Assembly: GCA_045546095.1 (NCBI GenBank)
Contig: JAZQCE010000010.1
Span: 5,712-69,711, forward strand
DNA length: 64,000 bases
From: Candidatus Nanosyncoccus sp.
GTDB lineage: Bacteria; Patescibacteriota; Saccharimonadia; Saccharimonadales; Saccharimonadaceae
Direction: 5' to 3'
Shown: piece by piece, positions 1 to 32,769 of the stretch
Position numbering within the stretch: the first letter of the stretch is position 1
How the letters are laid out: every line of letters begins with the position of its first letter
The notes under the pieces: generated by a model
Database searches by the model: none
Told to the model about the DNA's origin: nothing
The model's input: the letters and a program-made list of their open reading frames with translations, nothing else
Position numbers and translations under genes: made by a program

Positions 1-1044
1 AATACTTTTTTTGTCGTCATTCAGGACAGCGTTCTCAAAAGACAAGTTATCTCCATATCTCAAATAACGAACCCATCCAGCCTGCGGCGTGTGGTCCAGG
101 GGCCCAGCTAGCGCCTGATAAAGTGAAGGCATAACATAGGTTTCACTAGTAGTAGTATCGCTAGTTGTCTGTCCTTGTGCTCTAAAAAATTCTCCATACA
201 TATGCGAAGGCATCAAATTCGTCTCCACGATAGGCAAAATATCAGAAACATGGTTGTTAGCAAAAAAGACTGTATGCAAGTTTTTCAAATTCGCCAAAGG
301 CTCCAAATCAGACACTTCGTTATCATCAATCAAAAGACCAAACAGATTAGCCATGCCGGACAGCGGGCTGAGATCGGTTATCTGATTGTTACTTAGTAAA
401 AGATTCTCCATCTTGGTAGCATTAGCTAGCGGGCTAAGGTCAGTTATCTTATGCCCTTGCAAGTACAACTCCGTGAGCTCTGTCATATTTGCAAGTGGCG
501 AAATGTCCGATATTTGCCCATTTACAGAGGACGAATATCTCGGCGACAATTCTAGATGATACAGCTTTATCAAACCACTCAGTGGCGTAAGATCAGAAAC
601 TTGATGTTCGGATACAGCGAGATAGGTGAGATTAGTCATATTCTGTAACGGAGTAAAATCAGTCACGGCTCCCTTCGTGGCAAAAAATTCGAGATTGGTA
701 AAATTCTCTATACCAGTTAAATCTGTTATTACGCCATCCGTATTACTAAGTCGAACAACGCTAGGTATTTCTGAAACATTCATCGTGGCATAATATGGCA
801 CACTAGAGCAATTATAAGGAGCATAAGATAACCCCTGATTACGGAGCTGGTTATATACTACTTCGCATAGCCTCTTATCATTGAATTCTATTGTTTTTGT
901 GTCCTCAGCAAAGGCCACCGGAGTGAATACTCCACAACTCAGAGCAACAGCAACTGTCGCTACCCCCATCCCAATTATTAATTTTTTTCTAGTTTTTGTC
1001 AGATAACAAAAAACACTACTGCGTGTTTTCATCTTGTTTTCCAT
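1..1044 (-). CDS. Internalin-like leucine-rich-repeat secreted/surface protein, 3' end runs off the window
   Basis: Read manually on the minus strand from ATG at 1044 with no stop to base 1: N-terminal hydrophobic signal (LIIGMGVATVAVALSCG) then 22-aa LRRs such as ISDISPLANMTELTELYLQGHK, ITDLSPLANATKMENLLLSNNQ, ITDLSPLSGMANLFGLLIDDNE. Absent from the ORF track because it is truncated. Confidence 0.9.
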   Translation of the reverse strand, partial: MENKMKTRSSVFCYLTKTRKKLIIGMGVATVAVALSCGVFTPVAFAEDTKTIEFNDKRLCEVVYNQLRNQGLSYAPYNCSSVPYYATMNVSEIPSVVRLSNTDGVITDLTGIENFTNLEFFATKGAVTDFTPLQNMTNLTYLAVSEHQVSDLTPLSGLIKLYHLELSPRYSSSVNGQISDISPLANMTELTELYLQGHKITDLSPLANATKMENLLLSNNQITDLSPLSGMANLFGLLIDDNEVSDLEPLANLKNLHTVFFANNHVSDILPIVETNLMPSHMYGEFFRAQGQTTSDTTTSETYVMPSLYQALAGPLDHTPQAGWVRYLRYGDNLSFENAVLNDDKKSI

Positions 1045-1174
1045 GGTTTGTATGACCTTTCATTTGTTATGTTTATATAGCCGAGAAAACCATGACCAAT
1101 ATCTATATTATATGTCAATCTCAGTATATGTCAACCACCCCAAACCCCTATCCGAAAATATATGGTATAAGACA

Positions 1175-1294
1175 CAATACGCCGTGTTAGTGCAAACCAA
1201 AACCATGGACGTGACTAGGTTATACAAAAGAATAGGCGAATTATCAAAAAGGGACTATAAAGAAATTAGGGACGCTTACCTAAAGCTAATATAA
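1175..1294 (+). pseudogene. C-terminal remnant of a PemK/MazF-family toxin
   Basis: AVLVQTKTMDVTRLYKRIGELSKRDYKEIRDAYLKLI* resembles the PemK C-terminal motif (A-x-L-x-Q-x-R/K-x-x-D-x-x-R-L-x-x-x-I-G-x-L); no PemK N-terminus upstream. Confidence 0.65.
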
Positions 1295-1345
1295 AATATG
1301 CCTCAGTATGACTACTGAGGGTGGGCGGGTAGATCCCGAATATAC
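1292..1345 (-). ncRNA. Putative two-hairpin small RNA convergent on the pemK-like remnant (copy 1)
   Basis: Downstream of a TTGAAA-N17-TATAAT promoter; hairpins CGGG/CCCG (1326-1338) and CCTCAGTA/TACTGAGG (1301-1320); homologous to 6316-6373. Confidence 0.55.
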
Positions 1346-1349
1346 CTTG

Positions 1350-1378
1350 ATTATATCAAACATCACTAGATATTTCAA
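1350..1378 (-). promoter_or_regulatory. sigma70 promoter TTGAAA-N17-TATAAT
   Basis: -35 at 1378-1373, -10 at 1355-1350, spacer exactly 17 nt. Confidence 0.7.
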
Positions 1379-1463
1379 GGCCATTAACTACGAAATCTAT
1401 ATAATACGCACATCTACTGTCAATTTTAGCAAAAAAGAGAGCTTGACATTGTATAATATAACC

Positions 1464-6269: not shown

Positions 6270-6320
6270 ATTCTAATTATCCAAATAGTTAAAAAGGCAT
6301 TTCATGAATTATATGAGTAA
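6270..6320 (+). pseudogene. Very short C-terminal remnant of a second PemK-like toxin
   Basis: QIVKKAFHELYE* (6282-6320) parallels YKEIRDAYLKLI* at 1294 and is followed by the same convergent RNA/promoter unit. Confidence 0.4.
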
Positions 6321-6373
6321 AAATGTACCCCCGACTTTTCAGAAGGGGGGATTGCGAGTAACCTCGAATATAT
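6316..6373 (-). ncRNA. Putative two-hairpin small RNA (copy 2)
   Basis: Follows a perfect TTGACA-N17-TATAAT; hairpins CGAG/CTCG (6355-6366) and CCCCC/GGGGG (6328-6350); compensatory change relative to copy 1. Confidence 0.55.
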
Positions 6374-6378
6374 TTCAT

Positions 6379-6407
6379 ATTATATCAAGTAGCAAGCATT
6401 TTGTCAA
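6379..6407 (-). promoter_or_regulatory. Consensus sigma70 promoter TTGACA-N17-TATAAT
   Basis: -35 at 6407-6402, -10 at 6384-6379. Confidence 0.8.
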
Positions 6408-6417
6408 TAGAAAGGAT

Positions 6418-6526
6418 AGGTTGGTTATGAATTTAAAGATAAGAATCTTGAATTTCTAAACCAACCTGTTTCCTTAATCCCGTTCACTATTAAAATCTAT
6501 CTCCCGGAACCAAAATAGAAAACATA
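6418..6526 (+). repeat. Cassette boundary repeat R1 (ychF 5' end copy plus element end; palindromic att-like site)
   Basis: AGGTTGGTTATGAATTTAAAGATaaGAATC matches the ychF start (10402-10431); the whole ~110 bp aligns with 8092-8200; inverted arms AGGTTGGTT / AACCAACCT at 6418-6467. Confidence 0.85.
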
Positions 6527-6566
6527 ACGATTTTTATTGCCAAAACAAATGATTTATAATGGTTTC

Positions 6567-6956
6567 ATGTCAAAACCAAGTTATTCAGTTATAGTCCCAA
6601 AAGAGCTTTACCCAAAACCATCAAATCGAGAAATGACTGCTGCCTATATTTTGATTGATTTCTTTAATTCCGATATAAAATTCGTAATCAGAAGCGATAA
6701 TAAAACGCCAGATTTTTTAATTGATAATAAATACTGGGAATTAAAATCTCCTACGGGTAATGGTAAATATAATTTACAGCATGCACTCAGAAATGCTGCT
6801 AAGCAATCAGAAAACGTTATTATTGATGCTAGATTTTCAAAAATTCATATCAATAAAATAAAAAATGAGCTGAATTACCAATTCAAGCACTCTAAAAATA
6901 TAAAGCATCTGCTTTTAATTGATAAGCAGAAAAATGTAGTTGAAATTTCTAGATGA
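6567..6956 (+). CDS. Small PD-(D/E)XK nuclease resembling the tRNA nuclease CdiA C-terminal domain; candidate toxin
   Basis: KTPDFLIDNKYWELKSPTG...LRNAAKQSENVIIDARF motif; ATG 6567 is 6 nt after TATAAT. Family assignment is from recall and needs an HMM check. Confidence 0.75.
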   Translation: MSKPSYSVIVPKELYPKPSNREMTAAYILIDFFNSDIKFVIRSDNKTPDFLIDNKYWELKSPTGNGKYNLQHALRNAAKQSENVIIDARFSKIHINKIKNELNYQFKHSKNIKHLLLIDKQKNVVEISR

Positions 6957-6968
6957 GTACGATATAAT
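6940..6968 (+). promoter_or_regulatory. sigma70 promoter TTGAAA-N17-TATAAT overlapping the nuclease stop codon
   Basis: -35 at 6940-6945 inside the last codons, -10 at 6963-6968. Confidence 0.75.
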
Positions 6969-6974
6969 AAAGAT

Positions 6975-7029
6975 ATCGAAAGTCCGTCAGGCAACGCTGG
7001 ATTGCGTAGGTTCGGGGCTTTCTTTTTTG
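6975..7029 (+). ncRNA. Putative small hairpin RNA (candidate antitoxin)
   Basis: Stem GAAAGTCCG (6978-6986) / CGGGGCTTTC (7013-7022), inner GCAA/TTGC stem, T-run terminator 7023-7028, own promoter. Confidence 0.55.
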
Positions 7030-7044
7030 TGCTATAATGCAACT

Positions 7045-30903: not shown

Positions 30904-32769
30904 TCAGTCCCTCTTTAACATAACCGTAAAAGCTTCTGACGGAATGTCGATTTTGCCAAATCGCTTCATTCGTGCTTTACCGCGTTTTTGCTTCGCAAGT
31001 AGCTTGGCCTTGCGATCTCTATCACCTGTGTGGATTTTTACCGTCACATCTTTGCGATACGCACCAATTGTCTCCCGCGCGATAATTCTCGCCCCAATCG
31101 CCGCTTGCAGAGCCACTTCAAAATTCTGACGGGGAATTACGCCTTTCAGCTTCTTCGTCACTTCCCGGCCAATCGCATCTGCCTCACTTCTGTGTGCCAT
31201 CACCGAAAGCGCGTCCATCCGCGTCCCAGCTATTATAAAGTCCACTCTCACTAGGTCTTCAGGCCGATAACCATCTAATTCATAATTAAACGAAGCGTAT
31301 CCACTTGTCGCAGATTTTAGCTGATCATAAAAATCAGTCAACAGATTTGCCATCGGCGCTTCAAAATCAATCACCGCTCGTTCTTCTATATAGCTAAGAT
31401 TCGTCTGATGTCCTCGTTTTTCATTGATTAGATTCAGTACATTACCAATCATCGGCTTCGGTACAATTATCTCTCCCTTTACCCACGGCTCGCGAATTTC
31501 TGCGATTTCCGACACATCCGGCAAATCCGCCGCAGATTTTATCTCACGGACTTCACCGTTCGCCATCACGATTTCATAATTTGTACTCGGATTAGTCACG
31601 ATTAAATCTAATCCAAATTCTCGTTCCAGCCGCTCCTTGATAATATCCATATGGAGTAGCCCCAAAAACCCGATTCTCAGACCAAACCCGAGGATCGGCG
31701 AATTTTCCGGCTCAAATTTTAGTGCTGAATCCGACAAGCTCAATTTTTCCACCGCCTCTTTTAAATCTTTGTATTGATCGTTTGATACAGGGAAAAACCC
31801 TGCATACACAAACGGCAATACATTCTTGTATCCGGGCAGTGGTGTGTCAGCTGGTTTTTTTACCAACGTCACCGTATCACCCACCTTCGCCTCGCTAGTT
31901 GTTTTTAGATTGGTCACAATATAGCCAATCTCTCCCGCAGATAGTCGCTCTCTTGGCGTCATCTTTGGTGTCAAAATCCCGACTTCCAATGCTAACCCCT
32001 TCGTCTCTGCTGCCATCATCCGAATCTCTGCCCCCTTAGGGATCTCTCCGTCAAACACCCTCACATATAGCACCACCCCCCGATAATCGTCAAAATATGA
32101 ATCAAAGATCAACGCTCTAGTGGTCACAGCAGGCCCAACACCATCTTTTCTCGGGCTGCGTTCTCGACCCCTGTCGCCACAGGGGTCGAGCCGCTCATCC
32201 TCGCCTTGCCAGGCTCCGGAGGCCCTTCGAAAAGAGGTGCTTGGGCCTGCCGCCACTACCGCATCTAATATTTGCTCCACATTTTTACCCGTCTTACCGG
32301 AGACTTCTATAATGTCAGATCGTTTGCACCCGAGCAGATTCATAATCTGCGCCGCTACTGATTCGGTATCTGCCGCCGGCAAATCAATTTTGTTTATCAC
32401 CGGAATAATTGTGAGGTCTTGTTCTAATGCCAGATACACATTCGCGAGCGTCTGCGCCTGAATCCCCTGCGTGGCATCCACCACCAGTACCGCCGACTCC
32501 ACCGCCTGCAATGACCGACTCACCTCATAGCTAAAATCCACGTGTCCTGGCGTATCGATTAAATTCAGAGTATACCCTTTCCACTGCATCGTTACCGGAG
32601 CCAGTTTAATCGTAATCCCTTTCTCACGTTCTAGCTCCATTGAATCTAGCAGCTGCGATTGCATCTCACGTTTGCTCACCGTCCCCGTGAGCTCCATCAT
32701 CCGGTCCGCAATCGTACTTTTCCCGTGATCAATGTGTGCAATGATACAAAAATTCCGAATCTTTTCCAT
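30904..32769 (-). CDS. lepA: Translation elongation factor 4 (with in-frame hairpin insertion)
   Basis: IRNFCIIAHIDHGKST, LIDTPGHVDF, GFLGLLHMDI, IPRQNFEVALQA. Confidence 0.97.
   Translation of the reverse strand: MEKIRNFCIIAHIDHGKSTIADRMMELTGTVSKREMQSQLLDSMELEREKGITIKLAPVTMQWKGYTLNLIDTPGHVDFSYEVSRSLQAVESAVLVVDATQGIQAQTLANVYLALEQDLTIIPVINKIDLPAADTESVAAQIMNLLGCKRSDIIEVSGKTGKNVEQILDAVVAAGPSTSFRRASGAWQGEDERLDPCGDRGRERSPRKDGVGPAVTTRALIFDSYFDDYRGVVLYVRVFDGEIPKGAEIRMMAAETKGLALEVGILTPKMTPRERLSAGEIGYIVTNLKTTSEAKVGDTVTLVKKPADTPLPGYKNVLPFVYAGFFPVSNDQYKDLKEAVEKLSLSDSALKFEPENSPILGFGLRIGFLGLLHMDIIKERLEREFGLDLIVTNPSTNYEIVMANGEVREIKSAADLPDVSEIAEIREPWVKGEIIVPKPMIGNVLNLINEKRGHQTNLSYIEERAVIDFEAPMANLLTDFYDQLKSATSGYASFNYELDGYRPEDLVRVDFIIAGTRMDALSVMAHRSEADAIGREVTKKLKGVIPRQNFEVALQAAIGARIIARETIGAYRKDVTVKIHTGDRDRKAKLLAKQKRGKARMKRFGKIDIPSEAFTVMLKRD
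32129..32250. repeat. Hairpin element family B, copy in lepA
   Basis: Arms GCAGGCCCAACACCATCTTTTC / GAAAAGAGGTGCTTGGGCCTGC; core aligns with 57364-57482. Confidence 0.85.

Follow-up and report, generated by a model that had tools for sequence, protein, structure and literature searches.

A decayed PemK/MazF-family toxin gene faced by an intact convergent small-RNA gene in Candidatus Nanosyncoccus: a possible RNA-antitoxin module on a MazF fold

MazF and PemK are textbook type II toxins. Convergent antisense RNAs that overlap the toxin gene at its 3' end belong to type I systems such as txpA/RatA and bsrG/SR4 of Bacillus subtilis and par RNA I/RNA II of Enterococcus faecalis. Type III toxins such as ToxN have a MazF/Kid-like structure and are inhibited by RNA, and the pemK motif of Rfam is a structured RNA associated with pemK genes lacking pemI. 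Here we describe a locus in a 64,000-nucleotide stretch of Candidatus Nanosyncoccus sp. (contig JAZQCE010000010.1, positions 5,712 to 69,711; hereafter the window), where the remnant of a PemK/MazF-family toxin gene is faced by an intact gene for a predicted RNA of ~54 nt with two hairpins. The source genome measures 832 kb and is 98% complete, and homologous proteins carry the label Candidatus Saccharibacteria. The RNA recurs, in the same position and orientation, at almost every intact toxin of this kind in the genus. We tentatively read it as an antitoxin that acts in cis as an antisense RNA, in a type I-like manner, and the window locus as a relic of such a module; our confidence in this reading stays somewhat short of even.

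Like txpA/RatA, bsrG/SR4 and par, the modules considered here consist of convergent genes with the RNA ending at the toxin 3' end, combine a strong RNA promoter with a weak toxin promoter and come without a protein antitoxin. In those systems, however, the toxin is a small hydrophobic membrane peptide and not, as here, a MazF-fold RNase of ~130 aa; their RNAs are 100-220 nt long with long overlaps, against ~54 nt here. The type III systems ToxIN, CptIN and TenpIN are similar in having a MazF/Kid-like endoribonuclease, a small structured RNA and no protein antitoxin. Their antitoxin, however, consists of tandem repeats, processed by the toxin, that precede the toxin gene on its own strand, while the RNA described here is single-copy, downstream and convergent, has its own promoter and accompanies a toxin of another family. 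Upstream same-strand tandem repeats were present at none of the loci, and the cases with two RNA copies are separate promoter-driven genes. With type II MazEF/PemIK (B. subtilis EndoA/EndoAI, PDB 4ME7) the modules share the fold, the positions of the catalytic Arg and Thr/Ser and the Pfam family; they differ in having no mazE or pemI, in an N-terminal extension of the toxin and in a convergent RNA where the antitoxin gene would be. Single-copy, convergent and ending on the stop codon, the layout is that of type I with a 3'-overlapping antisense RNA and not that of type III. The conserved 5' tail and first hairpin of the RNA, described below, are compatible with the toxin binding it.

The Rfam pemK motif is likewise a structured RNA at pemK genes without pemI. 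The initial annotation of this locus, made from the sequence alone, had proposed a comparison with it; its model matched neither the window (E up to 10) nor any of 18 homologous loci (E up to 1), and the window RNA is therefore a different element. The sole Rfam match in the window, RAGATH-9, was attributed to chance (E 2.6), and the 18 loci gave no Rfam match at all.

The toxin remnant lies at 1154..1294 on the plus strand, as delimited with Pfam, a subfamily hidden Markov model (HMM) and an alignment to relatives (A2). Read in frame +2, it comprises the final ~46 codons and the stop codon TAA at 1292-1294, and up to that TAA translates as ENIWYKTQYAVLVQTKTMDVTRLYKRIGELSKRDYKEIRDAYLKLI. Pfam PF02452 matched it over profile positions 65-104 of 109 with an E-value of 1e-3 and 19.6 bits, under the curated cut-off of 23.1 bits, whereas intact homologues in relatives score 28-44 bits, over the cut-off. 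A Saccharibacteria subfamily profile built from the intact relatives matched the remnant at positions 91-130 with an E-value of 1e-9. In A2 the remnant is 54% identical to the closest intact protein, with an internal deletion of 7 residues. The N-terminal ~97 codons are gone, so that everything ahead of the GSWY motif (about two thirds) is lost; the fragment begins downstream of both the RPV and the PLTSQ motif and has no catalytic Arg or Thr/Ser. Since the score falls under the cut-off over a partial profile, the window holds the remnant of a PF02452 member and not a member. A PemK-like C-terminus ending at 1294, interpreted as the fossil of a MazF-fold toxin, was what the initial annotation had proposed, and both points hold. 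The space expected for the N-terminal part of the toxin is filled by the promoter of a leucine-rich-repeat (LRR) gene on the minus strand (1107..1134, read 1134..1107), a consensus TTGACA-16-TATAAT with 12/12 matches in the promoter scan, which marks the edge of the replacement that cut the toxin short.

The small-RNA promoter faces the remnant at 1350..1378 on the minus strand (read 1378..1350). It consists of a -35 box TTGAAA (1378..1373), a 17-nt spacer and a TG-extended -10 box TATAAT (1355..1350), that is TTGAAA-17-TGaTATAAT, with 11/12 matches plus the TG in the scan. The predicted ~54-nt RNA at 1290..1343 (minus strand, ~1343..1290), defined by a covariance model (R1), folding and covariation, runs from a 5' tail AUAUU through hairpin A, a C-rich linker and terminator hairpin B to a U-rich tail, which reaches onto the toxin stop codon. 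Hairpin A has 4 bp (CGGG-AUCUA-CCCG, 1338..1326, minus strand). Hairpin B has an 8-bp stem (CCUCAGUA-GUCA-UACUGAGG, 1320..1301, minus strand) followed by CAUAUUUUAU, and is the sole terminator-like site that a scan of 900-1600 returned. The 57-nt stretch with both hairpins folds at -16.7 kcal/mol (z -3.9). The 5' end would lie at 1343, by analogy with a homologous locus on the plasmid pVir, where the mapped start site lies 7 nt after the -10 box, and the 3' end near 1290. The promoter on the opposite strand and the two-hairpin RNA ending at the toxin stop had thus been described correctly beforehand, apart from a length nearer 54 than 55 nt. Promoter-like sites are common in this AT-rich stretch (7 seen against 3.0 +/- 1.7 expected), and a single promoter match is not above chance; the evidence from one sequence is therefore weak, and the significance of the RNA gene comes from its conservation in relatives. 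R1 matched the window RNA with 64.4 bits (E 3e-11).

Window DNA at 1285-1365 matched several genomes of the same genus, mostly directly behind intact PemK genes. The shared layout, on the strand opposite the toxin, is a -35 box, a variable 17-nt spacer, TATAAT, 6 nt, rUAUAUUCG, hairpin A (CGGGnnUACCCG in relatives), a C-rich linker and hairpin B, which is variable in sequence but starts with CCC, ends with GGG and is followed by a U-run. The toxin stop codon lies within the U-run or, in some loci, inside hairpin B. R1, built from 19 copies, found 34 copies in 17 of the 37 genomes of the genus and no match in 24 other families of the order. Alignment A4, which includes metagenome contigs, contains 37 copies, all in the same geometry. 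Standard pairs occupy 95.1% of its pair positions, compared with 81.5% after shuffling (reached by 0 of 500 shuffles) and 36-61% when the pairing was slid, and compensatory changes occur in 10 of the 11 pairs. The strand of the RNA is fixed by the excess of G-U over A-C pairs in the proposed sense (12 vs 5 in the 37 copies), by the U-run, which follows hairpin B on the proposed strand only, and by the promoter, which stands at a constant 6-nt distance from the R1 model start in ~27/30 copies. The 17-nt promoter spacer is ~42% identical between paralogues, comparable to the 40% at toxin third codon positions; the promoter boxes and the RNA 5' tail are far better conserved. By these measures, the comparison with relatives establishes the predicted RNA element as real. 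A substitution-rate comparison between a second window copy and a near-identical relative (1/57 differences in the RNA, 6/17 in the spacer) is not relied on, because a third locus has the same spacer with another RNA and recombination confounds the result.

The association with intact toxins is close. The RNA is present at or over the stop codon of 17 of the 19 intact toxin genes of the genus, always on the opposite strand (three further loci in genome G021 are counted); the two exceptions are L024, a weak 22-bit variant that possibly lacks it, and L026, a divergent PemK. Three independent metagenome contigs (L083/84, L086 and L087) also have the RNA at the toxin 3' end. A convergent orientation and an end on or over the stop codon hold for all copies of the RNA gene, and several of them overlap the 3' coding end.

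The toxins form a distinct subfamily, whose hallmark is an N-terminal extension of ~30 residues (K-DF--W---K--LH). An AlphaFold2 model computed from 27 sequences reached a predicted local distance difference test (pLDDT) score of 84.4, above 90 in the core and only ~62 in the extra helix, and its best 50 PDB matches were MazF without exception. Intact homologues carry both the RPV and the PLTSQ motif on this predicted MazF fold; in alignment with B. subtilis MazF, the RPV Arg falls on R25 and the PLTSQ Thr/Ser on T48, which we take to be the catalytic residues. No model for this toxin was found in NCBIfam or PADLOC. The subfamily occurs in 5 of the 217 genera sampled across the order, so its expansion is specific to this genus. 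Outside the genus, a convergent promoter is again accompanied by a short structured RNA, of other sequence, at L076, L082 and L079, and two other homologues read through. One PemK homologue from outside the genus, L077 (G202:C8), has no stop, and its frame stays open for ~375 aa into a GNAT-acetyltransferase-like region; either it is a fusion or the stop codon was lost. A conserved G-rich box (GGGGTGGGGGGTTGA) lies 60-110 nt upstream of the PemK start, over the -35 of the toxin's weak promoter, in ~10 of the 19 intact modules (among them L023, L028, L029, L033, L036, L038, L043, L044 and L045). This box and the small RNA's C-rich linker (CCCACCCC) are complementary; if transcribed, the box could be a second pairing site, and if not it may be an operator.

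A protein partner was sought around the toxins. Open reading frames (ORFs) of at least 35 aa within 600 nt of 18 intact genes were clustered, and no neighbour family recurred in more than 2 of the 18 loci; the neighbours vary from locus to locus. Gene callers and Pfam revealed no MazE-like gene adjoining the toxin on the metagenome contigs; L086 holds a separate, divergent RelB/YafQ pair. A Pfam scan of the window detected no MazE/PemI-like neighbour, and the remnant is flanked by a minus-strand LRR protein (Pfam LRR_4, E 3e-21) and a 303-aa protein without a Pfam family, which agrees with the earlier statement that no such gene is adjacent. The arrangement that defines type II, an adjacent co-oriented antitoxin gene of the MazE/PemI, AbrB or ribbon-helix-helix kind, was thus not found. 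In this genus and on the metagenome contigs, intact homologues behaved as the initial annotation implied, with the RNA motif present and a protein antitoxin not found. A literature search returned nothing linking Saccharibacteria, toxin-antitoxin systems and small RNA together.

Searching plasmids with tblastn recovered homologues only in Campylobacterota, namely Nitratiruptor, Helicobacter suis and Campylobacter jejuni/C. coli, including pVir. All are labelled 'type II PemK/MazF family toxin', with no antitoxin annotated for any of them; annotation, Pfam and ORFs gave no protein antitoxin next to them. The 5.8-kb H. suis plasmid encodes only RepL, MobC, a relaxase, one large hypothetical gene and the toxin, and offers no candidate antitoxin ORF. 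With hhalign, the whole pVir protein, its extension among the aligned parts, matched the Saccharibacteria profile (probability 99.3%, E 6.7e-21). R1 had no match in the plasmid loci, and homology of the RNA sequence is undetectable there. Even so, a convergent promoter of the extended -10 kind is present at the pVir, Nitratiruptor and H. suis loci, together with a structured RNA whose final hairpin, CCCnG...CnGGG, lies next to the stop codon. pVir has TTGATT-17-TGaTATAAT, with the hairpin CCCCG...CGGGG adjoining the stop; Nitratiruptor has TGTATAAT and two hairpins, and H. suis has TGcTACAAT and three hairpins.

For pVir, the sequence led us to predict a minus-strand RNA that starts near record position 31119 and has its hairpin at 31045-31062. 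Both ends coincide with CJpv3, a 77-nt RNA of C. jejuni pVir (minus strand, 31119-31043) listed as 'Detected on Northern blot' (Dugar et al. 2013, PMC3656092, Table S12). Table S5 of the same paper (PMC3656092) gives CJpv3 a start-site height of 16164 and the start of the toxin gene itself a height of 28. The equivalent RNA is therefore real, abundant and expressed far above the toxin in C. jejuni, an organism other than that of the window, whose toxin is a distant homologue. The pVir0047/CJpv3 module of C. jejuni 81-176 resembles the Saccharibacteria modules in its homologous N-extended PemK toxin, its convergent promoter ~85 nt past the stop and the GC hairpin by the stop at which its RNA ends; it differs in the unrelated RNA sequence, the length of 77 nt vs ~54 nt and its location on a plasmid of a different phylum. 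According to papers citing Shen et al. (2016, Mol Microbiol 101:909), an antisense small RNA (sRNA), cjrA, is the antitoxin to the toxin cjpT on pVir, which also has the type II pair virA/virT. CJpv3/pVir0047 is possibly cjrA/cjpT, as one unconfirmed candidate; another candidate for cjrA is CJpv2, which overlaps a small minus-strand ORF. If cjpT is pVir0047, this kind of module is already known experimentally and the Saccharibacteria set is a new, distant and expanded branch of it. In the surrounding region of pVir (29.1-31.3 kb, L088), the PemK-like gene and CJpv3 lie within an array of paralogous hypothetical genes of ~120 aa (pVir0045, 0046 and 0048), each preceded by a near-identical promoter sequence.

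Decay of the modules appears to have begun mostly with the toxin. Of 30 RNA copies whose flanks were scanned with the subfamily HMM, 14 had an intact toxin, 8 a fragment or a frameshifted gene and 8 nothing. Overall, 16-17 RNA copies, about half, stand opposite a broken toxin or none. The genome of the window has three RNA copies and no intact toxin. The second copy is a toxin-less RNA gene at 6315..6407 on the minus strand (R1, promoter and terminator scan), with an R1 match at 6315-6374 (55.7 bits, E 2.4e-9), an RNA at ~6372..6318 (minus strand) and a promoter TTGACA-17-TGaTATAAT at 6407..6379 (12/12); the RNA is one base off that of an intact module in genome G015. Next to it, at 6294..6320 on the plus strand, a second toxin relic was read from the sequence: the last 8 codons and stop of another PemK paralogue (KAFHELYE-stop), which correspond to KKAFHELYK-stop of an intact gene in a relative (locus L039). 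The third copy, with no toxin remnant, lies on another contig of the same genome, outside the window (G000:C5:1891-1949, R1 41.5 bits), and is decaying, with a mutated 3' arm of hairpin A (GGGAAUAUCCA) and a -10 box TATAAC. Twice within 5 kb, then, the toxin is gone while its RNA gene survives, and the window amounts to a natural experiment on which of the two parts can be lost first. An RNA gene left intact beside a destroyed toxin is the sole order of loss that a toxin-antitoxin pair tolerates, and the toxin-first loss is what such a pair predicts.

The second copy has a further neighbour. Within 6294-6459, on the side opposite the 8 PemK codons, stands a 5' stump of ychF (MNLKIRILNF-stop) inside a ~50-bp palindrome (AGGTTGGTT...AACCAACCT). 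In G015 and G032 an intact module sits immediately upstream of the true ychF start and shares its promoter spacer with the second window copy, which points to cassette exchange at the site.

Because the RNA accompanies almost every intact toxin and no protein antidote was found, the RNA is most likely the antidote. The intact module would consist of two genes, an N-extended MazF/PemK-fold endoribonuclease toxin and a convergent RNA gene. From a strong promoter ~85 nt beyond the toxin stop, a ~54-nt RNA would be made that terminates at a hairpin on or near the stop codon. Working in cis, this RNA would be antisense to the toxin mRNA at its 3' end, where duplex formation or kissing at the shared 3' hairpin could lead to mRNA decay or a translational block; convergent transcription possibly assists. 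In the window copy, the N-terminal two thirds of the toxin would have been replaced by the LRR-gene promoter region, with the RNA gene left intact. From Saccharibacteria to Campylobacterota the geometry is conserved and the RNA sequence is not, which favours a cis antisense on the 3' end of the toxin mRNA. What we infer from these comparisons is that the RNA serves as an antitoxin, that it works as an antisense and where it starts and stops in the organism of the window. The initial annotation had a toxin controlled by a small RNA; association, geometry and the order of decay speak for this, while control itself is inferred.

Several observations weigh against a cis antisense. The 5' tail AUAUUCG and the loop of hairpin A (..UAC) are at least 80% conserved in 37 copies from diverged paralogues, although a pure cis antisense needs no conserved sequence; this hints at protein recognition. 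Many orphan RNA copies retain 11-12/12 promoter matches, which argues against a strictly cis-acting RNA, since without its target it should not be maintained. The toxin-first asymmetry of decay owes something to detection and is inflated by it, because a single frameshift is enough to class a toxin as broken, whereas an RNA gene keeps scoring when mutated. The RNA showed no enriched pairing to the ribosome-binding region of the toxin, with duplex energies of -17.6 for cognate pairs and -17.3 for control genes (p 0.34), and pairing in trans with that region was dropped as unsupported. The pVir RNA ends 5 nt past the stop codon, which bears on any antisense overlap. Finally, if virT should be pVir0047, a protein antitoxin exists on pVir and the case for an RNA antitoxin is weakened.

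The conserved tail and loop suit an RNA antitoxin that binds the toxin protein, in a type III-like manner. The 5' tail and hairpin A would then occupy and block the groove in which the MazF dimer holds RNA, either as a pseudo-substrate or as a cleaved product, and the convergent position would only secure co-inheritance. We consider this unlikely. It would explain why AUAUUCG-CGGGnnUACCCG is kept in its sequence, and not only in its structure, among paralogues with ~51% identity between their proteins and ~40% at neutral sites, and why orphan RNA genes, often with perfect promoters and stems, occur where the genome has no intact toxin: such copies, two of them in the window, could neutralise incoming paralogous toxins in trans. 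Tandem extra RNA copies beside the toxin-linked one, as in L086 and G021:C8, also fit, as does the MazF/Kid-like structure of type III toxins inhibited by RNA. A trans-acting binder, however, needs no end on the stop codon, and it is the geometry rather than the RNA sequence that is conserved between Saccharibacteria and Campylobacterota, R1 being silent in the plasmid loci. Unlike ToxI, CptI and TenpI, the RNA forms no tandem repeats upstream of the toxin, and by Pfam the toxin is a PemK and not ToxN or AbiQ. A broader form of the idea is a little more doubtful still, namely that a MazF-fold subfamily in Saccharibacteria and on Campylobacterota plasmids has no protein antitoxin and is neutralised directly by a single-copy convergent RNA of ~50-80 nt. 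If true, it would be a new RNA-protein pair architecture, neither classical type I nor type III, and the orphan RNA genes of a reduced genome would be anti-addiction 'vaccines' against incoming toxin cassettes.

The weak promoter of the toxin, seen in the Saccharibacteria loci and on pVir (start-site height 28), would suit an RNA that is no antitoxin at all. As a regulatory or insulating element, for example a convergent promoter-terminator unit, it could reduce toxin expression through transcriptional interference or protect neighbours against read-through, and the protein would be kept harmless in other ways, for instance by low expression, by its N-terminal extension or by an unlinked factor. 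The family-specific N-terminal helix, modelled at low confidence, leaves room for this, as does the type II pair virA/virT on pVir that papers citing Shen et al. (2016) mention, of which virT may be the PemK-like gene. On the other hand, strict co-occurrence and toxin-first loss fit an essential antidote, and an insulator is not expected to persist as orphan copies with consensus promoters. Moreover, the gene upstream of the pVir toxin is a member of the repeated paralogue family, with its own repeated promoter, and has no counterpart in other lineages. We regard a purely regulatory role as improbable. Very improbable, in our judgement, is that the hairpins are a DNA-level site that moves the toxin cassette, such as a recombination site or the end of a mobile element, with the promoter boxes incidental. 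The module does occur in varied contexts and at synteny breaks, G021 has 6 toxin and 8 RNA copies, and a ychF remnant adjoins the second window copy; yet the element stands at a single end of the gene, the exact 17-nt box spacing and the fixed distance to the structure hold in ~27/30 copies, the U-run is strand-specific, G-U pairs outnumber A-C pairs, and the corresponding pVir element is an abundant 77-nt transcript. A cis-acting antisense antitoxin stays our preferred, if tentative, reading.

The surroundings of the window locus were compared with those of relatives. Homology to orthologous loci of the same genus begins only at ~1446, just ahead of the 303-aa gene. Judged by this alignment, the LRR gene, the toxin remnant and the RNA gene (window 1-1445) are lineage-specific, which places the relic at a synteny break. 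No empty site for the relic was demonstrable: the downstream gene has orthologues in 16 relatives, with nothing homologous upstream of ~1446. Elsewhere in the window, on the plus strand at 6940-7030, a TTGAAA-17-TATAAT promoter match falls within the last codons of a 139-aa ORF (6537-6956). On metagenome contig L083 (2920-3020), the RNA gene, with its promoter and 5' region, extends over the beginning of the following gene, a DHH phosphoesterase on the other strand (start at 2985); the RNA would there also be antisense to the translation start of that gene.

The window locus itself is a dead relic; what makes it interesting is the family to which it leads and the record it keeps of the order of decay. 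Databases call every member of this toxin subfamily 'type II', yet here is a branch without MazE and with a conserved convergent small RNA. If the RNA is the antidote, the fold of a toxin does not fix the type of its antitoxin, and 'solitary' MazF genes in annotations may have unannotated RNA partners. RNA-based control would then exist in ultra-small episymbiont genomes, in which, to our knowledge, almost no sRNAs are known.

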